Made by a program: the position numbers and the translations under genes. A stretch of 64,000 nucleotides of DNA from Clostridia bacterium (GTDB lineage: Bacteria > Bacillota > Clostridia > Oscillospirales > Acutalibacteraceae): NCBI GenBank assembly GCA_017423825.1, contig JAFPCP010000029.1, positions 15,521-79,520 on the forward strand. The letters run 5' to 3'. The notes beneath the pieces were generated by a model. That model made no database searches, was not told where the DNA came from, and was given only the letters and a program-made list of their open reading frames with translations. Positions 2,379-53,521 of the stretch are shown here, piece by piece (position 1 is the stretch's first letter; each line of letters opens with the position of its first letter).

Positions 2379-3325
2379 TGATGCATCCCTCCATTTTTGC
2401 GCACCGTCAGATTGATGAAGATATCTTCCAGCGACATAGCCGACGGTTTAGAATACAGTAACGGCCACTTTTTTTGTGCCAAACGTTCGAAAAGGTCCCG
2501 TCGTATGTCGACTCCCTCGGCGACTTCAATGGCGAGGTCGGTGGCACCGTTTTCATTGCTGTCCAGAACGGCAACCTTTTCCACGCCGGGAACGCCTGCA
2601 ATCAGGGAAGAAACCTCTTTCGCCGGGGCGTCGATACGCACCTCTAAACGCCGTTCTTTGGAGAACTTGGCGGAGAGATTTTCGGCGGTATCATCTGCGA
2701 CGATTTCACCTTGATTAAGTATAACGATGCGGTCGCACACCGCTTCGATTTCGCTCAAAATATGTGAGGAAAGGATGACGGTGTGGTGTTTCCCCAGGCT
2801 TTTGATTAGCGAGCGGATTTCGATGATTTGATTCGGGTCGAGACCGACGGTGGGCTCGTCCAGGATTAAAACCGGTGGGTTGCCGATAAGCGCCTGCGCC
2901 ATGCCCACGCGCTGTTTATATCCCTTAGAGAGGTTTTTGATGAGCCGACCATACACGTCCTCGATTTTCATCACGCGACAAATTTCGGTGATGTGCTTTG
3001 CGCGCGGCAGAGCACACTTTTTGAGGTCGTATATAAAATCCAAATATTCCCGCACCGTCATGTCGGGGTAGAGGGGTGGCATTTCCGGCAGATACCCGAT
3101 GTTTGCTTTCGCCTCATTGGGTTCTTCGAGAATATCATGGCCGTTGATACGCACGGTGCCATCGGTGGCAGAGAGATACCCGGTGAGAATGTTCATGGTG
3201 GTGGATTTACCCGCACCGTTGGGTCCAAGGAATCCGAGGATTTCTCCTTCCTCCGCTTGGAAACTGATGTTGTTGACGGCGCAATGACTGCCGTATCGTT
3301 TGACAAGGTTTTTTACTTCAATCAT
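2375..3325 (-). CDS. ABC transporter ATP-binding protein
   Basis: Walker A GPNGAGKST, signature LSKGYKQRV, Walker B LILDEPT. Confidence 0.92.
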   Translation of the reverse strand: MIEVKNLVKRYGSHCAVNNISFQAEEGEILGFLGPNGAGKSTTMNILTGYLSATDGTVRINGHDILEEPNEAKANIGYLPEMPPLYPDMTVREYLDFIYDLKKCALPRAKHITEICRVMKIEDVYGRLIKNLSKGYKQRVGMAQALIGNPPVLILDEPTVGLDPNQIIEIRSLIKSLGKHHTVILSSHILSEIEAVCDRIVILNQGEIVADDTAENLSAKFSKERRLEVRIDAPAKEVSSLIAGVPGVEKVAVLDSNENGATDLAIEVAEGVDIRRDLFERLAQKKWPLLYSKPSAMSLEDIFINLTVRKNGGMHQ

Positions 3326-6450: not shown

Positions 6451-7638
6451 ATGAAAATTTTGGTTATTAACGCCGGTAGTTCGTCCCTGAAATATCAACT
6501 CATAGACATGGACGGGGAGAAAGTGCTCGCCAAAGGTGTGTGCGAGCGTATCGGCGCGGCGGACGGCATCTTCACGCACAAAGCGTTTGGAAAAGCGTGG
6601 AAGAGCGAGGTGTCTATGCCGGACCATACGGCGGCTTTTACGCAGGTAAAAAAAGCCTTGACCGAAGGTGAGGGCAAGGTGATAGAGGACCTGTCCGAGG
6701 TGAATGCAATTGGCCATCGCGTGGTGCAAGGCGGTGCGAAATACGACCGCTCGGTGGTTATCACCGAAGAGGTGTTGCAGGATATTGATGCTATGAAAGC
6801 GTTGGCGCCGTTGCACAACCCGCCGGCTTTGCAAGGCATTGCCGCGGCGACCGCTACGTTTGGTGTGGACATCACGCAGGCGGCGGTGTTTGATACGGCG
6901 TTCCATCAGACCATGGAGCCGCAGGCATATATGTTTGCGTTGCCGTATGAGTATTATGAGAAGTATGGTGTGCGCCGATATGGCTTTCACGGCACCTCTC
7001 ACCGGTATGTGAGTGCACGGTGCATGGAATTGTTGCAAAACAAACCCGATGCCCGTATCATTACCTGCCATTTGGGCAGTGGCTCCTCGATTGCCGCTAT
7101 CAAAGGCGGCAAGGTGGTGGACACCACCATGGGCATGACGCCTTTGGATGGCTTTATGATGGGCACGCGTTCGGGTGGGTTTGACCCGTCGGTGGTCACC
7201 TTCTTGATGGAAAAAGAGGGACTCACCCCCAAGCAGATGGATGATGTTATGAACAAAAAATCCGGCACGCTGGGTATTTCCGGTGTGTCCAATGACGATC
7301 GCGATATCCAAGCGGCGATAGAACGCGGCGATGCACGTGCAAAATTGGCTTGGGATATGCGCACCTATCAGGTGCTCAAAATTATCGGCGGCTACATTGC
7401 GGCGCTGGGCGGTTTGGACGCGTTGGTGTTCACCGCCGGCGTGGGCGAGAATCAGCCCGCTCTGCGTGCCGAACTGATAGAAGGACTTTCCTATATGGGC
7501 ATGAAATGTGACCATGAGGCGAATGCGGTGCGCGGTGAGGAGCGGCTGATCACCACAGCCGACTCGGCGATTCCCGCGTGGATTATTCCGACGGACGAAG
7601 AAATGGTGATTGCACGGGATACCGCTGCTTTGGTATGA
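6451..7638 (+). CDS. ackA: acetate kinase
   Basis: MKILVINAGSSSLKYQL..., FHGTSHRYV, and IPTDEE at the C-terminus. Confidence 0.96.
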   Translation: MKILVINAGSSSLKYQLIDMDGEKVLAKGVCERIGAADGIFTHKAFGKAWKSEVSMPDHTAAFTQVKKALTEGEGKVIEDLSEVNAIGHRVVQGGAKYDRSVVITEEVLQDIDAMKALAPLHNPPALQGIAAATATFGVDITQAAVFDTAFHQTMEPQAYMFALPYEYYEKYGVRRYGFHGTSHRYVSARCMELLQNKPDARIITCHLGSGSSIAAIKGGKVVDTTMGMTPLDGFMMGTRSGGFDPSVVTFLMEKEGLTPKQMDDVMNKKSGTLGISGVSNDDRDIQAAIERGDARAKLAWDMRTYQVLKIIGGYIAALGGLDALVFTAGVGENQPALRAELIEGLSYMGMKCDHEANAVRGEERLITTADSAIPAWIIPTDEEMVIARDTAALV

Positions 7639-26780: not shown

Positions 26781-27068
26781 ATGGCATTAAATGCAAAATG
26801 TCCTAAATGCGGTAGTACAAAAGTCCAATTATCTAACGAATCAAGTAAACACGGTTGTTTGTATATGGTTCTTTTTGGTATTTGGTATTTTATGTGGCTT
26901 ATGTGTAAGTGGTGTATTGGTATGATGGTGTTCTTCTGCTATGATTGGTGGATGGCAATCGTACATAAGGCATCAGGTAAAGGTCATGTATGGCAATCAA
27001 AAAGATGGTTCTCAAATCGTAGAAAAATCTATTTCTGTCATGATTGCGGACATAATTTTAGAGCGTAA
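26781..27068 (+). CDS. 95-aa membrane protein with split zinc ribbon (CPKCG ... two TM helices ... CHDCG)
   Basis: GAGGTG RBS, N-terminal CxxC, C-terminal CxxC, and a W/F/M/C-rich hydrophobic hairpin between them. No family recognised. Confidence 0.65.
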   Translation: MALNAKCPKCGSTKVQLSNESSKHGCLYMVLFGIWYFMWLMCKWCIGMMVFFCYDWWMAIVHKASGKGHVWQSKRWFSNRRKIYFCHDCGHNFRA

Positions 27069-27123
27069 TAAAAACAAACTTTATATTTTGAGATTAGTAT
27101 AATTTCAAAGTATGTAACCCACT

Positions 27124-27157
27124 ATGACACTTTCAAGTTTTGAAAGTGTCATTTTTA
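27124..27157 (+). terminator. rho-independent terminator
   Basis: ATGACACTTTCAA-GTT-TTGAAAGTGTCAT followed by TTTTAT. Confidence 0.85.
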
Positions 27158-27174
27158 TATGCAAGAAAAGGGAG

Positions 27175-27216
27175 ACAACTTCCTTACGGAGTGTCTCCCT
27201 TTGGTGCGTCCCTTTT
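27175..27216 (-). repeat. right copy (inverted) of the ~42-nt hairpin repeat
   Basis: The reverse complement reads AAAAGGGACGCACCAAAGGGAGACACTCCGTAAGGAAGTTGT, with the core at 27179-27191. The stem sequence differs from the left copy but still pairs (GGGAGACA/TGTCTCCC). Confidence 0.8.
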
Positions 27217-27230
27217 TTTGAAATATTTCC

Positions 27231-27259
27231 TTGACATCTTTTGGGAAATGTGCTAGTAT
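27231..27259 (+). promoter_or_regulatory. extended -10 sigma-A promoter of the aromatic operon leader
   Basis: TTGACA (27231-27236), 17 nt including TGc, TAGTAT (27254-27259). Confidence 0.65.
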
Positions 27260-27291
27260 TAGCACATTAAAGAAGTGAAGGGGTGAACGGA

Positions 27292-27366
27292 ATGTTCTTT
27301 ATAAGCTATTATTTTTATTACTTTAAGAAGGGCTGTCCGTTCTCTCATGCGTGCTGTGTCAGATAA
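27292..27366 (+). CDS. 24-codon Phe/Tyr-rich leader peptide (not in ORF track)
   Basis: AAGGGGTG SD 6 nt upstream. MFFISYYFYYFKKGCPFSHACCVR has 8 of residues 2-11 aromatic (5 F and 4 Y in total). The stop codon lies in the loop of a 7-bp hairpin. Confidence 0.6.
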   Translation: MFFISYYFYYFKKGCPFSHACCVR

Positions 27367-27399
27367 ACACAGCTATCGTCATGTATAGTAACGAACAGT

Positions 27400-27451
27400 C
27401 CGCAACGGCGTGTGCTCATTCAAGAGCATACGTAGGTATGCGGATTTTTTT
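27400..27451 (+). terminator. candidate attenuator terminator (composite hairpin + T7)
   Basis: CCGCA/TGCGG (27400-27404 / 27439-27443) encloses an 8-bp helix GTGTGCTC/GAGCATAC, followed by A+TTTTTTT (27445-27451). An alternative 6-bp helix GCATAC/GTATGC competes. The first operon gene starts 20 nt later. Confidence 0.5.
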
Positions 27452-27471
27452 ATTGAAACGGAGATGAAGGT

Positions 27472-28665
27472 ATGATTTCACAAGAAATGTTAGCACTTGG
27501 CAAGAAAAGTTCGGTTATTCGGGAGATTTTTGAATATTCCAAGGTGCGCCGGGCGGAAATCGGGGATGAAAACGTGTTTGATTACAGCCTCGGTAACCCG
27601 AGTATACCCGCACCGCAGAAGATTGGAGAAACGATGCAGACGTTGCTGCGCGAAATGAACCCGGTGGACTTGCACGGATACACCTCTGCGCCTGGCGATA
27701 TGACGGTGCGGCGCAAGATTGCTGAAAGCATTACCGCTCGTTTTGGTGTGCCCGCCGATCCTGCCTTGATTTACATGACTTGTGGTGCGGCCGCGTCGCT
27801 GACGATCACCTTGCGTGCACTGACAACGCCGGGGGATGAGGTCGTTTTGTTGGCCCCGTATTTTCCGGAATATCAGGTGTTTGTGCGCAATGCCGGTGCG
27901 GTTCCGCAGACGGTGTGTTGTCGGCCGGGCGACTTTGATTTGGACATTGACGCGTTGGCGGCGGCGATTGGTCCGCGCACACGGGCGCTTATTTTGAATT
28001 CGCCCAACAACCCTTCCGGTGCCGTGTTTTCGGCGCAGAGCATCGAGCGCTTAGCCGACCTGTTGCGGGAAAAGACCGCCCAGATTGGCCATCCCATCAC
28101 CATTATTGCCGACGAGCCGTATCGCGAGTTGGTGTACGATGGGGTTGAGGTGCCGTATGTGCCGGCCTATTATGACGATACGGTTGTGTGCTATTCATAC
28201 AGCAAATCGCTCTCTTTGCCCGGTGAGCGCATTGGCTATATTGCGGTTTCGCCGCGTATGCCGATGGCGGGGGACGTGTTTGCGGCGGTTTGCGGTGCCG
28301 GGCGTAGCATGGGATACGTGTGTGCGCCGAGCCTTTTGCAACATACCGTGGCGTTGTGCGGAGACGTGAAACCGGATTTGTCGGCTTATGACCGTAACCG
28401 CACGCGGTTGTATACCGCCCTGACAGAGATGGGCTATGAGGCGGTACAGCCCAAAGGCGCGTTTTACCTGTTTGTGAAAGCGTTGGAAGAGAACGCGGCG
28501 TCTTTTTGTGAAAAGGCGAAGCAATTCGAACTGTTGCTGGTGCCGAGCGATGATTTCGGTGTTCCCGGCTATGTGCGGATTGCCTATTGCGTGGATTATG
28601 AACGCATTGAACGCTCTTTGCCGGCTTTCCGGCAGTTGTATGCGGCGTATAACGAGGGGAAATGA
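27472..28665 (+). CDS. class I/II PLP-dependent aminotransferase (aromatic/aspartate type)
   Basis: YSYSKSLSLPGERIGY (PLP lysine) and NPSGAV motifs. First gene of the aromatic operon. Confidence 0.88.
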   Translation: MISQEMLALGKKSSVIREIFEYSKVRRAEIGDENVFDYSLGNPSIPAPQKIGETMQTLLREMNPVDLHGYTSAPGDMTVRRKIAESITARFGVPADPALIYMTCGAAASLTITLRALTTPGDEVVLLAPYFPEYQVFVRNAGAVPQTVCCRPGDFDLDIDALAAAIGPRTRALILNSPNNPSGAVFSAQSIERLADLLREKTAQIGHPITIIADEPYRELVYDGVEVPYVPAYYDDTVVCYSYSKSLSLPGERIGYIAVSPRMPMAGDVFAAVCGAGRSMGYVCAPSLLQHTVALCGDVKPDLSAYDRNRTRLYTALTEMGYEAVQPKGAFYLFVKALEENAASFCEKAKQFELLLVPSDDFGVPGYVRIAYCVDYERIERSLPAFRQLYAAYNEGK

Positions 28666-29762
28666 GTATGAACGAGTTAGATAAAGCGCGACAACAAATC
28701 AATGAAGTAGACGAAGAAATGGCGCGCCTGTTTCAGAAGCGCATGGATGCCGTGCGGCTGGTAGCGGCGTACAAAAAGAAACACGGGATGCCGGTGGATG
28801 ACCTTGCCCGTGAGGAAGAGATGATACAGCGCAACAGCACGCGTGTGCAGGATGAGGCTTATCGCTCGTATTACGTCAATTTTTTGCGCGCCAATATTGA
28901 TTTGTCCAAAAACCTGCAACACCGTTTGCTGGACGGTATGCGTGTGGCGTATAGCGGGGTAGAAGGTGCCTTTGCGAACATTGTAGCGGAGCGCATCTTT
29001 CCGGATGCCTCGTGTGTGCCTTGCGCAGATTTCAAGGCGGCTTATCAGGCAGTGGTTGATGGGGATTGTGATTGCGCTTTGTTGCCTGTGGAAAATAGTT
29101 TTAACGGCGACGTGGGCCGGGTGATGGATTTGGCCTTTTTCGGTTCGCTGTACGTCACCGGCGTGTACGAAGCGGAAATTGTGCAAAATCTGTTGGTGGT
29201 GCCGGGCACAAAGGCCGAAGATATCCGGCAGGTGATTAGTCACCCGCAGGCGCTCGGCCAATGCGCGGCGTATATTGAACAGCATGGATATCAGCCGATA
29301 GAGGCTGTAAACACAGCGGTGGCCGTCAAACAGGTGGCAGAGATGGGGCGGCACGATATAGCTGCCATCGGCAGCGAGGAAGCGGCTGCGAAATTCGGTT
29401 TACAAAAGTTGGATTCGCATATTAACGAAAGCGGGACCAACAGCACACGTTTTGCGGTGTTTTCGCGAGCGCAGCGCATAACCGGCCCGAAGGACAAGGA
29501 CGACCGTTTCATTATGCTGTTTACTGTGAAAAACACAGCCGGTTCATTGGGCCGCGCGATATCGGTGATTGGAGAGCACGGCTTTAATTTGCGCGCCTTA
29601 AAAAGCCGCCCGACGCATGATTTGAGTTGGGAGTATTATTTTTACGCAGAGGGCGAAGGTAACATTGCCGGGGAACAGGGACAGACCATGTTGCGTGATT
29701 TGACGGCTTGTTGTAATAACGTAAAAATACTCGGGAGTTATGAGAAGGAAATAAAGGTCTAG
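28662..29762 (+). CDS. pheA: bifunctional chorismate mutase / prephenate dehydratase (P-protein) with ACT domain
   Basis: N-terminal AroQ-type CM helix (INEVDEEMARLFQKRMD), PDT domain with NSTRF, C-terminal ACT (GSLGRAISVIGEHGFNL). ATGA overlap with the upstream gene. Confidence 0.9.
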   Translation: MSMNELDKARQQINEVDEEMARLFQKRMDAVRLVAAYKKKHGMPVDDLAREEEMIQRNSTRVQDEAYRSYYVNFLRANIDLSKNLQHRLLDGMRVAYSGVEGAFANIVAERIFPDASCVPCADFKAAYQAVVDGDCDCALLPVENSFNGDVGRVMDLAFFGSLYVTGVYEAEIVQNLLVVPGTKAEDIRQVISHPQALGQCAAYIEQHGYQPIEAVNTAVAVKQVAEMGRHDIAAIGSEEAAAKFGLQKLDSHINESGTNSTRFAVFSRAQRITGPKDKDDRFIMLFTVKNTAGSLGRAISVIGEHGFNLRALKSRPTHDLSWEYYFYAEGEGNIAGEQGQTMLRDLTACCNNVKILGSYEKEIKV

Positions 29763-29783
29763 TATAGCAGGAGGCGAGCGACA

Positions 29784-30803
29784 ATGCGAATACCGGTTAA
29801 AACTTCACAAGGCGCATACGATATTGTGTTGGAACGTGGTGCTTTAAAAAAAGCAGGCACGTATCTTTCTTTACAGCGTCGGGTATTGATAGTGACCGAC
29901 ACCGGCGTACCGCCCGCCTATGCTGAGAGAGTGGCTTCTGCTTGCAAAAGCCCGGTGATATTGACCATCCCGCAGGGGGAACGCTCCAAACAAATGGAAA
30001 CCTATACGTTGTTGTTGGAGACGCTTGTGAAAAACGATTTCACCCGCACCGACTGCGTGGTAGCGGTTGGCGGCGGCGTGGTGGGGGATTTGGCAGGTTT
30101 TGCGGCGTCCACCTATATGCGTGGCATTGATTTTTACAACATTCCCACAACCGTGCTTTCGCAGGTGGATTCCTCCATCGGCGGGAAAACAGCCATTGAT
30201 TTTATGGGACTTAAAAACATTGTCGGGGCTTTTTATCCGCCTAAGCGGGTGCTAATCGATCCCGATACGCTGGCGACTTTGCCGGCACGACAGATAGCCA
30301 ATGGATTGGCAGAATCGGTAAAAATGGCGTTGACCAGCGATGCGGAGCTGTTCACCTTGTTTGAAACAGGGGATTTGCGCGAGGCAGCTGTGTTGGATAC
30401 GGTCATTGCCCGCTCTTTGGCGATAAAGAAACAGGTCGTCGAGCAGGATGAACACGAATCCGGTTTGCGGAAAATCCTGAATTTCGGGCACACTCTGGCG
30501 CATGCGTTGGAGAGCGTGCATGGGATGGATACCTACTACCACGGAGAATGTGTGGCAATCGGTATGGTGCCGATGTGTGCGCCTGCGGTGCGGGAGCGAT
30601 TGTTGCCGGTGTTGGAGCGCTTGCAATTACCTACGCAATTAGCGGGTGATGCAGAGGCGCTGATTGCGGCTTGTCGGCACGATAAAAAGATGACGGATGA
30701 GGATATAACCGTAGTGTATGTGCCGGAGATAGGGCAGTATGCATTGCATGCGATTCCGTTTACGGCATTGGAAACACGTATAAGGGAGGTGCTGGACAAA
30801 TGA
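29784..30803 (+). CDS. aroB: 3-dehydroquinate synthase
   Basis: GGGVVGDLAGFAASTYMRGI and GHTLAHALE motifs. Confidence 0.93.
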   Translation: MRIPVKTSQGAYDIVLERGALKKAGTYLSLQRRVLIVTDTGVPPAYAERVASACKSPVILTIPQGERSKQMETYTLLLETLVKNDFTRTDCVVAVGGGVVGDLAGFAASTYMRGIDFYNIPTTVLSQVDSSIGGKTAIDFMGLKNIVGAFYPPKRVLIDPDTLATLPARQIANGLAESVKMALTSDAELFTLFETGDLREAAVLDTVIARSLAIKKQVVEQDEHESGLRKILNFGHTLAHALESVHGMDTYYHGECVAIGMVPMCAPAVRERLLPVLERLQLPTQLAGDAEALIAACRHDKKMTDEDITVVYVPEIGQYALHAIPFTALETRIREVLDK

Positions 30804-31894
30804 AAAACACGATAGGTAACCACGTTTCAGTCACGTTGTTTGGAGAAAGCCATGGCCCGTCTATCGGCGTCGTTTTGGATGGCTTGGCGCCGGGCATGCG
30901 TGTGGATGAAGAATATATTACTGCGATGTTGGCGCAGCGTCGTCCGGCGGGTGCGTTGTCCACCGCCCGGCGGGAGCCGGATCCCTTCGTGATAGAGAGC
31001 GGTGTGTGGCAGGGGTATACCACCGGCACACCGGTGTGTATTCGCATTCCGAATACCGATACGCGTTCCGGTGATTATGCGGATACCCGCTGGCTCGCGC
31101 GCCCTTCCCATGCGGATTATACCGCCCATCAGAAATACCACGGATTTGAGGATTATCGCGGCGGCGGCCATTTCAGCGGTCGGTTAACGGCGGCATTGGT
31201 GGCGGCCGGGGCGTTGGTGATGCCCTCGCTTGTGGCCAAAGGGATTGCTATCGGCACGCATATACAACGCTGTGCCGGTGTCGCTGACCGCGATTTTGGG
31301 GATATAGCCCAAGATATCGCCGCGTTGCAGAAATTGGATTTTGGCGCATTGGATGCGGCCGCAGCCGAAGAGATGCAACAGCGCATACTCAAAGCCAAAG
31401 CCGAGGGCGACAGTGTTGGTGGTGTGCTGGAAACGGCTGTCATCGGGCTGGAACCCGGTTTAGGCGAGCCCTGGTTTGACACCGTGGAGGGTGTGTTGGC
31501 GCACGCTTTATATGCCATTCCGGCGGTAAAAGGCGTGGAATTCGGAGCGGGTTTTGGGCTGGCAGATATGACCGGTTCGGTCGCCAATGATGCTTTTTGC
31601 CAAACAGACAGAGGCATCGCCACCGCGACCAACCATAGCGGCGGCGTCAACGGCGGTATCACAAACGGCATGCCGGTGATATTTCGCTGTGCAGTGCGTC
31701 CGACGCCGACGTTGAGCCGCCCGCAAAACACCATAGACATGCGCACCGGTGAGGCGGCTGTTTTACAGTCTAAGGGACGTCACGACCCGTGCATTGTGCA
31801 CCGTGCCAGAGTGGTTGTGGATGCGGTGACCGCTTTGGCGGTGTGTGATTTGCTTGCGGGCCGCTATGGTACAGATTGGTTGGGTGCTCAATGA
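30800..31894 (+). CDS. aroC: chorismate synthase
   Basis: GESHGPSIG, RPSHAD and GRHDPC motifs. Overlaps the aroB stop. Confidence 0.95.
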   Translation: MKNTIGNHVSVTLFGESHGPSIGVVLDGLAPGMRVDEEYITAMLAQRRPAGALSTARREPDPFVIESGVWQGYTTGTPVCIRIPNTDTRSGDYADTRWLARPSHADYTAHQKYHGFEDYRGGGHFSGRLTAALVAAGALVMPSLVAKGIAIGTHIQRCAGVADRDFGDIAQDIAALQKLDFGALDAAAAEEMQQRILKAKAEGDSVGGVLETAVIGLEPGLGEPWFDTVEGVLAHALYAIPAVKGVEFGAGFGLADMTGSVANDAFCQTDRGIATATNHSGGVNGGITNGMPVIFRCAVRPTPTLSRPQNTIDMRTGEAAVLQSKGRHDPCIVHRARVVVDAVTALAVCDLLAGRYGTDWLGAQ

Positions 31895-33144
31895 AATATG
31901 GATGTATAGCGGAAAAGTTGTCCCACAGTTTTTCAAAGGAAATACACGCGCAGTTGTTTGGTTATGACTATACGTTGCGCGAGGTGCCGCCGAACGAACT
32001 GGATGCATTTATGCGTGCGCGGGATTTTGCGGCGATTAACGTCACCATCCCGTACAAGCAACAGGTGTTGCCGTATTTGGATGAAATCAGCGATATAGCC
32101 CGTCGGATCGGCGCGGTGAATACGATTGTTAATCAGCAAGGCCGTCTGATTGGCTACAATACGGATTTTTTGGGTTTAAGCGCCCTCATAAAGCGTGCCG
32201 GTCTTTCTCTTGCGAATAAAAAGGTGCTGGTGTTAGGTAGTGGCGGCACATCCAAAACCGCCTTGGCGGTAGCCGAGACTATGGGATGCCGTTGTGTATA
32301 CCGAGTCTCTCGCAATGGTCGGGAAAATTGCATTACCTACGAACAGGCCGCTGCTGAACACGCAGATGCGCAGATTTTAATCAACACCACACCCTGTGGT
32401 ATGTATCCCGTCTTGGGAGAAACACCTGTAAAGCTAGACACCTTTCCAGAATTAGAAGGTATCGTCGATGCGGTGTACAACCCACTGCGCAGCCAATTGG
32501 TGTGTGACGCGTTGAAACGAGGCCTTGTGGCTGTGGGTGGATTGTATATGTTGGTGGCACAGGCGGCGTATGCGGCGGAGAAATTCACGGAGCAAGAGGT
32601 GCCTGTGGATAAGATAGAGGCGATATACACCAACATGCGGCAGAAGAAAGAGAACATCGTGCTTGTCGGCATGCCTGGCTGTGGAAAGAGCACGGTTGGT
32701 TTGGGCTTAGCCGATGCGCTGGGATGCGATTTTATAGACACCGACCGCGAAATTGAGACGCGTCAAGGGCGTTTTATCCCGGACATTTTTGAGCGTGTTG
32801 GCGAGGCTGGGTTTCGCGACATGGAAACGGCCGTCATTCGAGAGATAGCCTCTCGACAAGGTGCGGTGATAGCCATCGGTGGCGGCGCGGTGTTACGCGC
32901 AGAAAACGTGGATTGGTTGCGACAAAACGGGCGCTTGTATTTCCTGGACCGCCCGCTGGAATGTTTGCCGGTGACGCAAGACAGACCGCTGTCGAGCAGT
33001 CGGCAGGCATTGGAGCAACGCTATCACGAACGATATGCCACATATTGTGCGGTTTGTGACCGGCGCGTACCCGTCGAGGAAAACGTAGACCAAACGATAA
33101 AGACCATTATAGAGGATGTTGCGTATGAAGATTTTGGTGATTAA
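31891..33144 (+). CDS. fusion: shikimate dehydrogenase (AroE) + shikimate kinase (AroK)
   Basis: The N-terminal ~260 aa are AroE-like (VTIPYK, GSGGTSK). The C-terminal part has the P-loop GMPGCGKST (coded from 32668) and DTD, as in AroK. ATGA overlap with aroC at 31891. Confidence 0.88.
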   Translation: MKYGCIAEKLSHSFSKEIHAQLFGYDYTLREVPPNELDAFMRARDFAAINVTIPYKQQVLPYLDEISDIARRIGAVNTIVNQQGRLIGYNTDFLGLSALIKRAGLSLANKKVLVLGSGGTSKTALAVAETMGCRCVYRVSRNGRENCITYEQAAAEHADAQILINTTPCGMYPVLGETPVKLDTFPELEGIVDAVYNPLRSQLVCDALKRGLVAVGGLYMLVAQAAYAAEKFTEQEVPVDKIEAIYTNMRQKKENIVLVGMPGCGKSTVGLGLADALGCDFIDTDREIETRQGRFIPDIFERVGEAGFRDMETAVIREIASRQGAVIAIGGGAVLRAENVDWLRQNGRLYFLDRPLECLPVTQDRPLSSSRQALEQRYHERYATYCAVCDRRVPVEENVDQTIKTIIEDVAYEDFGD

Positions 33145-33559
33145 CGGGCCCAACATAAACATGCTTGGCATACGGGAACCGGCGATTTACGGGCAGGCTA
33201 CGTATGCGGATTTGTGTGAACAAATTCGCGCGTATGCGGTGAACCGAAAGATAGACGTGGAGTTGTATCAATCCAACCACGAAGGTGCGCTGGTAGACGC
33301 TATCCAGCAGGCCTATAATCGTGTGGATGGCATTGTGATCAATCCGGCCGCATATACACACACCAGCATCGCACTTCTGGATGCACTCAAAGCGGTGGGG
33401 CTTCCCGCGGTGGAGGTGCACATTTCGAATGTTGCCGAACGGGAAGATTTCCGGCAGGTGAGTTATGTGCGGGAATGGTGTGAAAAGACCATTGCCGGCC
33501 ATGGATTTGCTGGGTATTTAGAGGCAATGGATTACCTTGTTGAGCGTGCGGGGGGATAG
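33125..33559 (+). CDS. aroQ: type II 3-dehydroquinate dehydratase
   Basis: MKILVINGPNINMLGIREPAIYG and INPAAYTHTSIAL. Confidence 0.95.
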   Translation: MKILVINGPNINMLGIREPAIYGQATYADLCEQIRAYAVNRKIDVELYQSNHEGALVDAIQQAYNRVDGIVINPAAYTHTSIALLDALKAVGLPAVEVHISNVAEREDFRQVSYVREWCEKTIAGHGFAGYLEAMDYLVERAGG

Positions 33560-33562
33560 CAT

Positions 33563-34765
33563 ATGAACGTGCAAATTTTCTCCTCTTGCGCCGCGGGTGA
33601 GGTAGCTGCGCCCCCATCCAAAAGCATGGCGCATCGGGCGCTGTTGTGCGCGGCTCTTTCAGAGGGTAGCACGGTGTGTGGGTTGGCCTATTCGCAGGAT
33701 ATCTTGGCAACCATCCAGTGTCTACGTGCGTTGGGAGCTGCGGTTGAGCAGAACGGCGACACCGTGCGTCTGGGTGACCTGCGTCCTTTTGATACACCAG
33801 ACGACGTTTGTTTGGATTGTAACGAAAGCGGCAGCACGTTGCGCTTTTTATTGCCATTGTGTATGCTTTCCGGCCGAGTGGTGACGCTCACCGGCAGTCA
33901 ACGGCTTTTTGAGCGTCCATTGAGTGTGTATGAAAGCATCGCGCGCGAACAAGGCGGGCTTTTCGAGAAAGTGGGCAACCGATTGCGTGTTTGCGGCGGA
34001 TTGCGTGCCGGCACCTACCGCGTGCCCGGAAATATATCCAGCCAGTTTATCACCGGCTTACTTTATGCTTTGCCTTTGTTGCCGGGGGACAGTTGCTTGG
34101 AAATCATCGGCGGACTGGAAAGTGGCTCTTATGTGGATTTGACGCTGGCGGCGCTGAAAGAGTTTGGCATATCCATCCATCGTGATGGTTCAGTTTTTCA
34201 TATTCCCGGCGGGCAAAAGTTTGACTGTTGCGTCTATACCGTCGAGGGGGATTGCTCCAATGCCGCTTTTTTGGATGCGCTGAACGTTGTGGGTGGCCAT
34301 GTGCGCGTGACCGGTCTTACGAAAGACACATTGCAAGGGGACCGCGTCTATCGCACTATGTATGAATCCTTGTTAGGTGGCGGTCGCCGTTTTGATTTGA
34401 CGGATTGCCCGGATTTGGGGCCGATTATGTTTGCGCTGGCAGCGGCAACGGGTGGCGCGGAGTTTACCGGCACCGCCCGCCTGTCCATAAAGGAGAGCGA
34501 CCGCTGCGCCGCGATGGCGATGGAACTGGCCAAATACGGCATTACGATGCAGGTAGGGCAAAACACCGTGTCGGTGCAAGAGGGAACCTTGCAAACGCCC
34601 GCGGTGCCGCTGTGTGGACACAACGACCACCGTATTGTCATGGCGTTGGCTGTGTTGTGCACCATAACCGGTGGCATCATTGAAGGAGCCGAAGCGGTGC
34701 GCAAAAGTTTTCCGGACTTTTTCGACGTGCTGAAATCTTTACAGATTGGACTAACCGAATTATGA
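33563..34765 (+). CDS. aroA: 3-phosphoshikimate 1-carboxyvinyltransferase (EPSP synthase)
   Basis: PPSKSMAHRAL, LFERPL and DHRIVMA motifs. Confidence 0.93.
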   Translation: MNVQIFSSCAAGEVAAPPSKSMAHRALLCAALSEGSTVCGLAYSQDILATIQCLRALGAAVEQNGDTVRLGDLRPFDTPDDVCLDCNESGSTLRFLLPLCMLSGRVVTLTGSQRLFERPLSVYESIAREQGGLFEKVGNRLRVCGGLRAGTYRVPGNISSQFITGLLYALPLLPGDSCLEIIGGLESGSYVDLTLAALKEFGISIHRDGSVFHIPGGQKFDCCVYTVEGDCSNAAFLDALNVVGGHVRVTGLTKDTLQGDRVYRTMYESLLGGGRRFDLTDCPDLGPIMFALAAATGGAEFTGTARLSIKESDRCAAMAMELAKYGITMQVGQNTVSVQEGTLQTPAVPLCGHNDHRIVMALAVLCTITGGIIEGAEAVRKSFPDFFDVLKSLQIGLTEL

Positions 34766-35622
34766 AATTGGATACATCAAAAAAGATTCTTATTGTAGGG
34801 CTTGGTTTGCTGGGCGGTAGTTATGCCAAAGCGCTGAAAAAGAAAGGGTTTACCGTCCATGCAATAACACGTAATCCGGAGGATATCACCTATGGATTGG
34901 AAAATGGCCTGATAGATGCCGGCACCACAACGGTGGATGCGGATTTGATCGGCGCATCGGATTTGGTTGTGTTTGCGTTATATCCGCATGTTTTTCTTGA
35001 ATGGATACAACAACACGGACACCTACTGCGAGAGGGTACGGTGATCACCGACGTGACCGGTGTCAAAGGGTGTATCGTGCATGAGATACAGAATCGGCTG
35101 AAACCGGGCGTGGAGTTTATCTCTGCGCACCCGATGGCGGGGCGAGAGGTAGGCGGTGTGCAAAATAGCGACGATGCCATTTTTACAGGCGCCAACTATA
35201 TCGTGGTGCCGACCGAGCGCAACACGCCCGAAGGCATTGCGCTTTGCAAAGAACTGGGAGAGATTTTAGGGTTTGCGGATATATCTGTGCTCACACCGGA
35301 AAAACACGATAAGATGATAGCCTTTTTATCCCAGTTAACACACGGCATTGCCGTGTCGCTCATGTGTGCGGTTGACGATGCGGATGTGCAACGCTACACC
35401 GGTGACTCTTTCCGGGATTTGACGCGCATTGCTAACATTAATGACGAAATGTGGAGTGAGTTGTTTCTCGCAAACCGCATCGCGTTGTTGGATGAAATGG
35501 ACCGCTACCGAGAAACATTTGACCGTTTGTACACTTGTATTAAAGATGGCGACAGAGAGGAGATGCGTCGCATGATGCGGCTGTCCACTGTCCGCCGTCG
35601 TGAGTTTGATAAGAAGGCGTGA
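34762..35622 (+). CDS. tyrA: prephenate dehydrogenase
   Basis: Rossmann IVGLGLLGGS and HPMAG motif. Overlaps the aroA stop. Confidence 0.9.
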   Translation: MKLDTSKKILIVGLGLLGGSYAKALKKKGFTVHAITRNPEDITYGLENGLIDAGTTTVDADLIGASDLVVFALYPHVFLEWIQQHGHLLREGTVITDVTGVKGCIVHEIQNRLKPGVEFISAHPMAGREVGGVQNSDDAIFTGANYIVVPTERNTPEGIALCKELGEILGFADISVLTPEKHDKMIAFLSQLTHGIAVSLMCAVDDADVQRYTGDSFRDLTRIANINDEMWSELFLANRIALLDEMDRYRETFDRLYTCIKDGDREEMRRMMRLSTVRRREFDKKA

Positions 35623-35628
35623 ATTACT

Positions 35629-36657
35629 ATGAATATGACCTTCCACAAAAAATTGCCCATTCCGCAAGATATAAAAGCCGAATATCCGGTTTTGGAAACG
35701 ATGGCAGAGGTGAAAGAAGCCCGAGACCGCGCGATTAAAGCGGTATTTTCCGGCGAATCGGATAAGTTTTTATTGATTATCGGTCCTTGTTCTGCGGACC
35801 ATCGCGAGCCGGTGCTGGATTATATCGGTCGTTTGCGCCGTGTACAGGACCGCGTGCAGGATAAAATCATTATTATTCCCCGCATCTATACCAACAAGCC
35901 CCGTACGACCGGCGACGGATACAAGGGGATGCTTCACCAGCCGGATCCGGATAAAAGACCGGATATGCTTAAAGGTATAGTGGCTATCCGTGAATTGCAT
36001 AGAACGGCGCTGAAAGATTACGGATTTACTTGTGCAGACGAGATGTTATACCCCGAAAATCACCGGTATTTATCGGATTTGTTGGCGTATGTGGCGGTGG
36101 GCGCGCGGTCGGTGGAAAACCAGCAGCACCGACTGACCGCGAGTGGATTAGACGTGCCGGTGGGGATGAAAAACCCCACCAGCGGAGATTTGACCATCAT
36201 GATGAATTCTATTAAGGCTGCCCAGCACAGCCACACGTTCCTGTATCGCGGCTGGGAGGTGCAAAGCCACGGCAACCCGTATGCGCACGCGATTTTACGC
36301 GGGTCTGTTGATTTTGCCGGCAAGAGCGTCTCCAATTACCACTATGAGGATTTACTAAAATTGCACGCTTTGTATCAAGAGTCTGGTTTAGATAATCCGG
36401 CGGCCATCGTGGACACTAACCATGCAAACTCCGGAAAGAAATGGATGGAGCAGGTGCGTATTGCGAACGAGGTGGTTTTCAGCCGCAATCACAACAGCGA
36501 CATTAAACGGCTTGTCAAAGGTCTCATGATTGAAAGTTATATTGAGGACGGTGCCCAAGGCCCCGGAGAGCATGTGTACGGCAAATCCATCACGGATCCC
36601 TGTCTTGGTTGGGAGAAAACGGAAAATCTTATTTTGCAGTTAGCGGATAAGGTGTAA
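35629..36657 (+). CDS. aroG: 3-deoxy-7-phosphoheptulonate (DAHP) synthase, class I
   Basis: IIGPCS and KPRTT motifs, 342 aa. Confidence 0.9.
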   Translation: MNMTFHKKLPIPQDIKAEYPVLETMAEVKEARDRAIKAVFSGESDKFLLIIGPCSADHREPVLDYIGRLRRVQDRVQDKIIIIPRIYTNKPRTTGDGYKGMLHQPDPDKRPDMLKGIVAIRELHRTALKDYGFTCADEMLYPENHRYLSDLLAYVAVGARSVENQQHRLTASGLDVPVGMKNPTSGDLTIMMNSIKAAQHSHTFLYRGWEVQSHGNPYAHAILRGSVDFAGKSVSNYHYEDLLKLHALYQESGLDNPAAIVDTNHANSGKKWMEQVRIANEVVFSRNHNSDIKRLVKGLMIESYIEDGAQGPGEHVYGKSITDPCLGWEKTENLILQLADKV

Positions 36658-36766: not shown

Positions 36767-36840
36767 TGGGCTGTAGTCTAGCGGTAGGACACGTGACTTT
36801 GACTCACGCCGTGATGGTTCGACTCCATCCAGCCCAGCCA
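36767..36840 (+). tRNA. tRNA-Gln (anticodon UUG)
   Basis: Acceptor TGGGCTG/CAGCCCA, anticodon stem CGTGA/TCACG with loop CTTTGAC, T-loop TTCGACT, encoded CCA. Confidence 0.92.
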
Positions 36841-42253: not shown

Positions 42254-42390
42254 AAAAAAGCACTCGGCAAAAGCCGAGCGCTGAAAAACCTCATCTCTCG
42301 GTTGTTACCGCAGGATTTGGCACCTTATGCATAACACAGGTTGCCGGACTTCACAGGGCCTGTTCCCTCAGTCTCTCTTGATAAGGGTAT
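42254..42390 (-). promoter_or_regulatory. SAM-I (S-box) riboswitch with terminator
   Basis: The minus strand reads CTTATCAAGAGAGACTGAGGGAACAGGCCCTGTGAAGTCCGGCAACC...GGTGCCAAATCCTGCGG...GAGAGATGAGG. The terminator AGCGCTCGGC-TTTT-GCCGAGTGCT follows, then a T-run. Confidence 0.9.
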
Positions 42391-43120: not shown

Positions 43121-43335
43121 AAAAATGCCTTGCATGGACACAGGTGTGTTCTGCAAGGCGCATGTATGCTCTTCCCGGATAGGGGAGCCGCTACGTTTCT
43201 TCTCTCATCCGGACTATACCGTCGGCTCCGGAATCTCACCGGAATCTGTCGTGTGACTGGCGGGCTTGTCCGATGATGTATGAGCATCGGCATTACCGCC
43301 GGTGGGGACTTGCACCCGCCTTGAAGAATATGTAT
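43121..43335 (-). promoter_or_regulatory. FMN riboswitch (RFN element) with terminator
   Basis: The minus strand reads TTCTTCAAGGCGGGTGCAAGTCCCCACCGGCGGTAA...AGCCCGCCAG...GATTCCGGTGAGATTCCGGAGCCGACGGTATAGTCCGGATGAGAGAAGAA. The terminator GCCTTGCA...TGCAAGGC follows, then ATTTTT. Confidence 0.9.
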
Positions 43336-52970: not shown

Positions 52971-53107
52971 TCACTTTACGCCTCCTTTCGTCAGCATATC
53001 TTTTGTTATTATAGCGAACTTTTGCATAAGATGCAAGTTTCCTCTTTTATTATTTGAAAAAATGTGATACAATAATCAGGATAGAATTATAAAAAGGAGG
53101 CGGTTAA

Positions 53108-53521
53108 ATGGCGGAGACGTTCTGTTCACATTCTCCGTCCCAGACAGAGGCGTACGGCCGACAATTAGCCGCCGAATTACACGGTGGCTCGGTGGTGGCT
53201 ATGTTTGGCGGCATGGGCATGGGCAAGACAGCGCTCGTGCGCGGCATAGCAGAAGGATTGGGCCTGTCCGCCGAGGTGTCTAGTCCTACCTTTGCTCTGG
53301 TGCACGATTATGGTGGTTGCCCGCCTTTGGTGCATTTTGACATGTACCGAGTTAATGGGTGGGAAGACCTGTATTCTACCGGATTTTTGGATTATTTAGA
53401 TGCCGGCGCTATTTTGGCGGTGGAGTGGAGCGAACACATTGAAAATGCTTTGCCGCCGGATGCAATTCGGCTGTATTTCACCCGCGTGGATGAAAACACG
53501 CGTTTGATAGAAAGAGGGTGA
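53108..53521 (+). CDS. tsaE: tRNA t6A37 biosynthesis ATPase TsaE
   Basis: P-loop GGMGMGKTALVRG and SPTFALVH. Confidence 0.9.
   Translation: MAETFCSHSPSQTEAYGRQLAAELHGGSVVAMFGGMGMGKTALVRGIAEGLGLSAEVSSPTFALVHDYGGCPPLVHFDMYRVNGWEDLYSTGFLDYLDAGAILAVEWSEHIENALPPDAIRLYFTRVDENTRLIERG

Follow-up and report, generated by a model that had tools for sequence, protein, structure and literature searches.

A probable phenylalanine- and tyrosine-sensing leader-peptide attenuator upstream of the aromatic amino acid operon in Oscillospirales

The window analysed here, a 64,000-nucleotide stretch of contig JAFPCP010000029.1 from a Clostridia bacterium of the family Acutalibacteraceae (order Oscillospirales), contains an operon for aromatic amino acid synthesis preceded by a leader that encodes a small peptide rich in phenylalanine (Phe, F) and tyrosine (Tyr, Y) and that ends in an intrinsic terminator. 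From its sequence and from modelling we consider it highly probable that this leader is a ribosome-mediated (leader-peptide) transcription attenuator of the nine-gene operon, sensing charged tRNA-Phe and tRNA-Tyr. The elements themselves, their conservation, the coding signature of the leader's upstream open reading frame (uORF), a set of alternative pairings and an exclusive link with the operon were all observed here. An earlier note on this DNA had proposed an attenuator of the pheL/trpL type sensing Phe and Tyr, a proposal to which conservation among relatives and the lack of a match to any known RNA family lend support.

The operon that would be regulated is the following:

27472 to 36657, forward strand (+): nine genes, namely an aminotransferase, pheA, aroB, aroC, an aroE-aroK fusion, aroQ, aroA, tyrA and 3-deoxy-D-arabinoheptulosonate 7-phosphate (DAHP) synthase

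The pheA gene encodes chorismate mutase/prephenate dehydratase, and the operon covers the whole common pathway together with the Phe and Tyr branches but no trp genes, a gene content that bears out the earlier description. As the operon makes Phe and Tyr and the leader contains F and Y with no tryptophan (Trp, W), the sensed codons match the products. The leader and the signals around it comprise the following elements:

27231 to 27259 (+): promoter of the sigma-A/sigma-70 type, with a -35 element TTGACA (27231-27236), a 17-nt spacer and a -10 element TAGTAT (27254-27259)
27278 to 27285 (+): Shine-Dalgarno site of the leader ORF, AAGGGGTG, 6 nt ahead of the ATG at 27292
27281 to 27291 (+): region 1, the 5' strand of the anti-antiterminator, made up of the Shine-Dalgarno G-run and the spacer GAACGGA
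27292 to 27366 (+): leader peptide ORF of 24 codons plus TAA (27364-66), product MFFISYYFYYFKKGCPFSHACCVR
27295 to 27324 (+): regulatory codon run, TTC TTT ata agc TAT TAT TTT TAT TAC TTT, with Phe or Tyr at 8 of 10 codons
27330 to 27351 (+): region 2, the shared strand, spanning uORF codons 13-20
27353-59 with 27367-73 (+): hairpin of 7 bp whose loop holds the uORF stop codon (27364-66)
27377 to 27401 (+): region 3, the 3' strand of the antiterminator, with a core at 27390-27401 (AACGAACAGTCC) that pairs with 27330-27341
27397 to 27446 (+): intrinsic terminator hairpin (regions 3 and 4, 3:4), GC-rich, -29 kcal/mol, z = -6.4
27445 to 27451 (+): terminator U7 tract, where the attenuated transcript is predicted to end
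27460 to 27474 (+): signals of the first structural gene, a Shine-Dalgarno sequence GGAG at 27460-63 and the ATG at 27472

All the sequence features that the earlier note had read from the leader were recovered where it had placed them. The promoter lies where it had been placed and matches the consensus at 10 of 12 positions; it has an extended -10 element (TGcTAGTAT, 27251-59, with the TG at 27251-52), and transcription would start near 27266. The 24-codon F/Y-rich ORF, with its Shine-Dalgarno site 6 nt upstream and no Trp, is also as described; its product has 5 F, 4 Y and 0 W, so that F and Y take up 9 of 24 codons, and 8 of residues 2-11 are aromatic. The 7-bp hairpin carrying the stop codon in its loop was found in the minimum-energy fold; it sits within the antiterminator loop and its sequence is variable across homologues. 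The terminator had been assigned an upper stem of 8 bp: the hairpin and the U7 tract are present, but the upper stem has 10 bp (27408-17/27424-33), above a lower stem in which 27397-27406 pairs with 27436-37 and 27439-46. Only 20 nt separate the U-tract from the ATG of the aminotransferase gene, which leaves no room for a separate promoter.

Between the upstream 95-amino-acid ORF and the leader promoter lie two consecutive terminator-like hairpins, one at 27124-27152 followed by a T-run and one at 27170-27200 (GGGAGACA...TGTCTCCC) followed by TTTGG, which probably insulate the operon from upstream transcription. A crude attenuator scan of both strands of the window (for a small ORF that has a Shine-Dalgarno site, draws 5 or more of 7 residues from a single amino-acid class and has a T-run downstream) picked out only one other small ORF besides the leader. 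This is a 17-codon ORF on the reverse strand (53076-53129), MNRTSPPFNRLLFIILS, with an Ile/Leu/Val-rich run, a Shine-Dalgarno-like site and a T-run 13 nt downstream; it is a weak attenuator candidate and may well be a chance match.

The whole leader (27266-27471) folds at -68.2 kcal/mol (z = -5.4; 0 of 200 shuffles equally stable), and its minimum-energy fold consists of a hairpin between regions 1 and 2 (1:2, 27281-27346), the stop-codon hairpin and the complete terminator. The 1:2 hairpin, which on its own has an energy of -22.9 kcal/mol (z = -2.8), provides an upstream helix able to pre-empt the antiterminator (27281-91 with 27336-46), and this helix covaries across subfamilies. Region 2 has two sets of partners: 27336-27346 pairs with region 1, and region 3 together with the nucleotides directly 5' of it is the partner of 27330-27343 and 27346-27351. 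A helix between the ORF and 27390-27401 had been recognised in the earlier note; it is real and better than was claimed, joining 27330-27341 to 27390-27401 with 11 of 12 positions paired and no bulge. This antiterminator helix (2:3) and the terminator are mutually exclusive, both using 27397-27401, the last 5 nt of region 3, which double as the base of the terminator 5' strand. A further competing hairpin that had been suggested, 27426-31 with 27436-41, exists but appears in no minimum-energy fold. RNA from 27326 onward, the part left 3' of a ribosome that occupies the F/Y codons, adopts an extended 2:3 structure (27330-51 with 27377-27401) that is kept even with region 4 present; the residual hairpin ends at 27441, 3 nt before the U-tract, and therefore should no longer be an intrinsic terminator.

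The antiterminator logic, which had been left unsolved, can now be written down as a model in terms of the pairings 1:2, 2:3 and 3:4, in which ribosome stalling, folding order and a response to Phe and Tyr are inferences. Once transcription has started near 27266, the nascent RNA would pair in one of these three mutually exclusive ways. With no ribosome present, or with the ribosome finished and gone, 1:2 would form first and leave region 3 free, the terminator would form and the transcript would end at about 27451. When Phe-tRNA and Tyr-tRNA are plentiful, the ribosome would run to the stop codon over region 2 while the polymerase makes regions 3 and 4, and with region 2 occluded by the translating ribosome the terminator would form. 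Should either charged tRNA be scarce, the ribosome would stall at Phe codon 2 or within the F/Y run (27295-27324); lying on or beside region 1 and inside the 1:2 loop, it would block 1:2, with region 2 just past its leading edge. Region 2 would then pair with region 3, the bottom terminator pairs near the U-tract would be lost and the polymerase would read into the operon.

Conservation of the leader was assessed with the aminotransferase protein as query, which gave 80 loci from 80 species-level genomes, all of uncultured Oscillospirales (Acutalibacteraceae, Oscillospiraceae, Ruminococcaceae and Faecousia), with aminotransferases 60-73% identical to that of the window. The layout of F/Y-rich ORF, Shine-Dalgarno site, promoter and terminator is kept in 68 of these loci, where the uORF starts 150-190 nt before the aminotransferase start and ends ~100 nt before it; counts on 69 leaders refer to these 68 loci plus the window. 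In 69/69 leaders there is a promoter that agrees with the consensus at 9 or more of 12 positions (11 or more in 56), and the distance from the end of the -10 element to the uORF start is 29-44 nt, and 29-38 nt in 67/69. A Shine-Dalgarno-like site precedes the uORF start in the homologous leaders with the spacing seen in the window, and 69/69 have a terminator hairpin (-18 to -36 kcal/mol) with a T-run behind it. The end of the T-run lies 9-59 nt from the gene start across the family, and 9-37 nt from it in most members, with one outlier at 178 nt (locus L003).

An independent, motif-first scan of metagenomes (CGATTTTATTAY, 6-13 nt, GGAYTGYCTGT) returned 30 matches, of which 29 have an aminotransferase start 136-162 nt downstream and the 30th is cut by a contig end; in the 29 loci the aminotransferase is followed by pheA and then aroB wherever the contig reaches that far. 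The earlier note had let its reading stand or fall with conservation of the uORF in relatives, and the uORF is conserved both in 68/80 related loci and in these 29 independent metagenome loci, so that about 100 relatives among uncultured gut Clostridia have the arrangement. A covariance model of the leader, R1, finds one copy per leader-bearing locus and one in the window (27274-27351), and none elsewhere in 728 kb.

Within the window's own species, four strains were compared and their leaders are identical, apart from changes in one strain. This strain (L082, 1254-1504, compared with window 27225-27475) has an identical aminotransferase and a leader that differs at six positions (27360-63, 27371 and 27374), which fall within the stop-codon hairpin, affecting its loop and a single pair (U-A to U-G), and 1 nt past the stem. 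The end of the uORF changes from V-R-stop to V-E-stop, and both the stop position and the hairpin pairing are kept.

The uORFs carry the signature of coding sequence. They are 17-28 codons long in the 69 leaders, 22-25 codons in 58/69, and begin with ATG (54), TTG (10) or GTG (5). Phe (235) and Tyr (248) together account for 31.6% of 1529 uORF codons, compared with 6.9% in the operon genes of the window, the uORF frame holds 483 F/Y codons where the two alternative frames hold 140 and 169, and Trp is found at 0 of 1529 codons (probability 0.0025 at the operon's Trp frequency); these enrichment statistics are partly circular because the uORFs were first chosen by F/Y content. Free of that bias are the frame-preserving indels, the ribosome-binding sites, the promoter spacing and the motif-first search. 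In alignment A1, made with MAFFT, the aligned start codon lies 18, 21, 24, 27 or 30 nt from the conserved aromatic core, a multiple of 3 in 67/69 sequences; in the other two the start codon was misaligned by MAFFT. The order and number of F and Y codons vary by species (FFISYYFYYF, FKNYFYFYYF, RFYYY, FYFYYF, SYYYFF and others) and the run remains aromatic, with a longest unbroken F/Y stretch of 3-8 codons across the family and Phe as residue 2 in 48/69. Taken together, these features of the sequence argue that the leader uORF is translated and is not incidental. Use of rare Phe/Tyr codons in the leader was ruled out: the TTT/TTC and TAT/TAC ratios match those of the operon's own genes.

In most homologues a near-invariant Arg codon, CGA, stands just before the aromatic run (loci L014, L018 and L071 among others; A1 columns ~55-71; core CGATTTTATTAY). 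The CGA in this position makes up 52 of the 105 Arg codons of the 69 uORFs and is absent from the window's own leader; CGA is a minor codon among the Arg codons of the window's aromatic operon genes (19/192). Beside the sensor codons it could act as a slow-decoding codon, or it could reflect a constraint at the RNA level.

The leader was also compared with known regulatory RNAs. All 4227 models of Rfam 15, which should include Phe_leader and the Lactococcus leu/phe leader, were run on 27000-27600 at E <= 10 and returned only chance-level fragments; for the leader itself (27260-27471) there was no match beyond such microRNA and tmRNA fragments. A riboswitch or T-box match was the other result that, by the earlier account, would have told against attenuation, and no Rfam family matches at that threshold. 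T-box and TRAP systems are the usual Firmicute regulators of aromatic amino acid genes. A T-box leader has a Stem I with a specifier loop and a conserved T-box antiterminator sequence; the T-box model (RF00230) has no match in the window, and no GGTGG.ACC or AGAGA motif is present in the leader, although the same model does detect a genuine T-box elsewhere (locus L042, 6834-7084). A TRAP leader has 9-11 (G/U)AG triplets spaced 2-3 nt apart; in 27260-27471 the longest such array has length 0, with 5 scattered triplets in total. The earlier note had treated Firmicute aromatic operons as T-box or TRAP territory: the absence of a T-box core from this leader holds, but leader-peptide attenuation is not without precedent in Firmicutes. 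At Rfam gathering thresholds the whole window yields an FMN riboswitch, a SAM riboswitch and five tRNAs only. The FMN riboswitch (92 bits, 43193-43332, reverse strand) and the SAM-I riboswitch (81 bits, 42288-42387, reverse strand) lie ~800 nt apart.

These results bear on the possibility of a structured leader RNA that acts as a riboswitch, a T-box-like element or a TRAP-like site by binding a ligand, a tRNA or a protein, the small ORF being incidental. Such an RNA would account for the strong structure of the leader (z = -5.4), for a core, CGAUUUUAUUAY, that is highly conserved in most homologues, and for a 3' half of the uORF that is constrained as RNA and not as peptide. We nevertheless regard it as very improbable, given the lack of a Rfam match at E <= 10, of a T-box core and of a run of (G/U)AG repeats, the frame-preserving start-to-core indels in 67/69 and the fixed spacing of Shine-Dalgarno site and start codon. 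Moreover, the F/Y codons swap position and number yet stay aromatic, with no in-frame stop, where an A or G at their third position would give Leu or a stop by the genetic code; and the window's own clade, which lacks the CGA core, has kept its F/Y run.

Evidence for the preferred reading, attenuation by a translated leader peptide, also comes from what lies beyond the aromatic run. In the 3' half of the uORF the RNA is conserved but the peptide differs completely among subfamilies (KKGCPFS, TDCLC, ADRRNSV, SADRQCT), and this half keeps its complementarity to the leader's own Shine-Dalgarno site and spacer. Spacer and region 2 covary as GAACGGA/UCCGUUC (window), CACACAGA/UCUGUGU, GAAGCGG/CCGCUUU, GAUACAGA/UCUGUGU and GAGUUCCG/CGGAACUC, and at least 3 Shine-Dalgarno nucleotides lie inside the 1:2 helix in 59/69 leaders. 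If the product were instead a functional micro-protein, aromatic and Cys-rich, with the hairpin and U-tract serving as its terminator or as an RNA-stability element and the operon expressed independently, the conserved peptide length and the DCLC-like C-terminal motif common to many homologues would find an explanation. This is scarcely credible, as the gap of 20 nt in the window (9-37 nt in most homologues) is too short for a promoter of the operon's own, each subfamily has an entirely different C-terminal peptide while the RNA for it stays complementary to the Shine-Dalgarno spacer, and the element is found only ahead of the aromatic operon.

The helices of the proposed attenuator were examined by counting paired cells in alignment A1, with the following results:

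terminator base (3:4): 95.7% paired cells, with a UA-to-CG compensatory change at one pair in 31 sequences
2:3 (window 27330-41 with 27390-27401): 78% paired cells, against 23-43% in slid controls
1:2, in fixed columns: 68% paired cells, the pairing register differing among subfamilies

On a structure-aware alignment from covariance model R1, 1:2 has 71% paired cells against 32-56% in slid controls, and its Shine-Dalgarno-side helix is 85.5% paired with two-sided changes at all four pairs. On MAFFT alignments RNAalifold recovers the terminator base only and, for the 1:2 hairpin, no structure at all, since the pairing register is not the same in all subfamilies; its place was taken by explicit structures, set against slid controls, and by per-sequence duplex energies compared with shuffles. 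The energies of the three pairings are:

1:2 duplex: median -15.4 kcal/mol, z = -2.2, per sequence against shuffled partners
2:3 duplex: median -16.7 kcal/mol, z = -2.9, per sequence against shuffled partners
terminator: median -23.7 kcal/mol

In the present family the 1:2 and 2:3 pairings are thus of about equal stability and both are weaker than 3:4, relative stabilities that resemble those of trpL. The pairings compete throughout: the 2:3 duplex takes terminator 5'-strand nucleotides in 69/69 leaders (median 7), and 1:2 and 2:3 use common region 2 nucleotides in 69/69.

The effect of ribosome position was modelled on truncated transcripts, which were adopted because equilibrium footprint masking is a poor guide to a switch governed by the order of folding. 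In this geometry model the ribosome's leading edge lies 13 nt past the first base of the A-site codon, the transcript ends before region 4, pairing across the ribosome is forbidden and 1:2 is assumed to fold first. With the A site on an aromatic codon, 2:3 is predicted (P > 0.5) in 67/69 leaders; with the ribosome on the last sense codon it is predicted in 0/69, a result largely built in by the rule against pairing across the ribosome. Altogether 378 of 448 aromatic codons are permissive for 2:3, the last permissive codon is at most 2 codons from the last aromatic codon in 66/69 leaders, and in most leaders the start of region 2 follows the first base of the last aromatic codon by 6-9 nt.

Several points weigh against the attenuator reading. 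Pure equilibrium models do not yield the switch for most members: when region 1 is taken away and the terminator is complete, the median probability of the basal terminator pairs at equilibrium is still 0.69, with values below 0.5 in only 23/69, and an equilibrium footprint-masking model was uninformative, the terminator dominating almost everywhere when present in full. Truncated transcripts folded at equilibrium without a ribosome prefer 2:3 in 46/69, and the off state would therefore have to depend, like that of classical attenuators, on 1:2 being the first helix to form, which is assumed. Region 2 and the stop codon are -4 to 29 nt apart, so that a terminating ribosome would not always mask region 2, and the 2:3 helix has conserved mismatches at A1 columns 84/166 and 88/162. 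To these must be added the selection of uORFs by F/Y content mentioned above, and the fact that all carriers found by protein search and exact-protein look-up are uncultured metagenome-assembled genomes (MAGs) or metagenome contigs; the window's own organism turned up in the exact-protein look-up only in gut metagenome assemblies. Lastly, one locus (L060) has the aminotransferase-pheA gene order but no leader. At this locus (2700-3000) there is neither a leader uORF nor a terminator, a TTGACA promoter being the only recognisable feature upstream, and the attenuator may have been lost.

The dominance of the terminator in most states at equilibrium, together with the sequestration of the leader's own ribosome-binding site by 1:2 in 59/69, which implies some control over translation initiation, would also fit a uORF that acts mainly on translation or messenger RNA stability, through coupling or ribosome protection of the 5' end, termination not being the regulated step. 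We give this very little weight, as the Shine-Dalgarno site and start codon of the aminotransferase gene lie outside all conserved helices, the conserved hairpin bears all the marks of an intrinsic terminator, its GC-rich stem running straight into a U-run in 69/69, and 2:3 specifically removes the basal stem pairs beside the U-tract.

For regulation at the level of attenuation, the association with the operon is informative: the aminotransferase is followed by pheA in 68/68 leader-bearing loci. In 10 of the 12 loci without a leader the aminotransferase gene stands alone in an unrelated context, in one it is internal to the operon (pheA-aroB-aroC-aminotransferase), and the remaining one is L060. 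No T-box was found upstream of the aminotransferase in these 12 leaderless loci. The T-box leader at L042 (99 bits, 6834-7084, forward strand) lies ~2.6 kb downstream of a stand-alone aminotransferase; T-boxes therefore occur in this group, but not at the aromatic operon. As to the operon itself, a single ORF (31876-33144, forward strand) fuses shikimate dehydrogenase (aroE) domains to shikimate kinase (aroK), an assignment by Pfam and NCBIfam matches only. At the end of the operon a tRNA-Gln(UUG) gene (36767-36840, forward strand) lies ~110 nt past the DAHP synthase stop codon, and tRNA genes also flank the stand-alone aminotransferase in several related loci.

In a literature search no description of a Phe/Tyr leader in Oscillospirales or Clostridia was found. 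The closest model systems are pheL-pheA and trpL, which have a short leader ORF rich in product codons, four pairing regions and a terminator (PMC3082878, PMC11802643). The present leader is like pheL (E. coli and other Gammaproteobacteria; Rfam Phe_leader) in its product-rich leader ORF, its 1:2/2:3/3:4 pairings and a terminator just before the first biosynthetic gene. It differs from pheL and trpL in lacking sequence or structure homology (no Rfam match at E <= 10), in its Clostridia host and in its mixed Phe/Tyr codons, and from pheL in that a nine-gene operon would be regulated, and not pheA alone. T-box and TRAP systems likewise use a choice between terminator and antiterminator to tie aromatic gene expression to tRNA charging or to amino acid level, but here the sensor would be a translating ribosome and not direct tRNA or protein binding.

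Among attenuators of the shikimate pathway, the aroR leader of Corynebacterium glutamicum, upstream of aroF (DAHP synthase), is ribosome-mediated with a Phe-Tyr-Phe motif; Phe limitation raises read-through, and Tyr availability is reportedly without effect (PMC11802643, citing Neshat et al., 2014). It shares with the present family a mixed Phe/Tyr leader peptide ahead of a shikimate-pathway gene and differs in its actinobacterial host and much shorter aromatic motif; where aroR reportedly does not respond to Tyr, the Oscillospirales family has Tyr codons (248) in numbers equal to its Phe codons (235). In Acholeplasma, uORFC-13-1 is a predicted uORF upstream of aroF with a promoter, a ribosome-binding site, Phe codons and an intrinsic terminator; it has 24 representatives and a U run encoding at least one Phe, with no Tyr component described (PMC8632094). 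It resembles the leader studied here as a Phe uORF with a terminator ahead of a shikimate-pathway gene and is set apart, by description, by its Mollicutes lineage and a different first downstream gene. Predictions of His-leader attenuators with 3-5 His codons exist for the Bacillus cereus group, for Peptostreptococcaceae and for Erysipelotrichales; they show classical leader-peptide attenuation to be present in Firmicutes, sporadically and apparently arising lineage by lineage, and came from the same type of comparative analysis (PMC9413887). They concern another amino acid and another operon and have no sequence relation to the present leader. A ribosome-mediated ilv attenuator has reportedly been found in Listeria. 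Given these Firmicute precedents (His-leaders, Listeria ilv and the Acholeplasma Phe uORF), to call the mechanism foreign to Firmicutes would be too strong, and together with the mixed leader of aroR they make the novelty smaller than the earlier note had implied. What we describe is very likely a classic attenuator: the mechanism is known from pheL, trpL and aroR, and the family is new in that it is not in Rfam and no description of it was found in the literature.

The regulatory codons of pheL and trpL are part of region 1. In the Oscillospirales leader, by contrast, the Shine-Dalgarno site and spacer of the leader itself make up region 1, and the 1:2 loop holds the regulatory codons. On balance we lean slightly towards a more specific interpretation, in which the leaders form an undescribed regulatory RNA family across Oscillospirales, stalling at either Phe or Tyr codons would switch on a complete aromatic operon, and the layout is unlike the textbook one: region 1 is formed by the leader's own ribosome-binding site, the codons lie in a hairpin loop, and a conserved Phe codon 2 would let an initiation-stalled ribosome mask region 1 directly. 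As part of this interpretation, no further ribosome would load once 1:2 has closed, and each transcript would therefore make one initiation-gated decision. In one subfamily (loci L021, L025, L027, L031 and L051) a palindrome, ACGGAUGUUCCGU, is centred on the leader start codon; it could form a small hairpin sequestering the AUG and so add an extra layer of initiation control.

Oscillospirales are among the most abundant and least tractable gut anaerobes, and the regulation of amino acid synthesis in these organisms is almost unstudied. The attenuator would offer a testable handle on the control of their whole shikimate and aromatic pathway by Phe and Tyr, and its covariance model could enter RNA family databases and so improve the annotation of MAGs. 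As a compact sensor of two amino acids it might also be reused as a genetic part. The understanding of attenuation itself is unchanged; the leader would be a further case of leader-peptide attenuation arising in a Firmicute lineage, where T-box or TRAP control is usually assumed, and constitutes a widely conserved, previously unannotated element in an important gut lineage.

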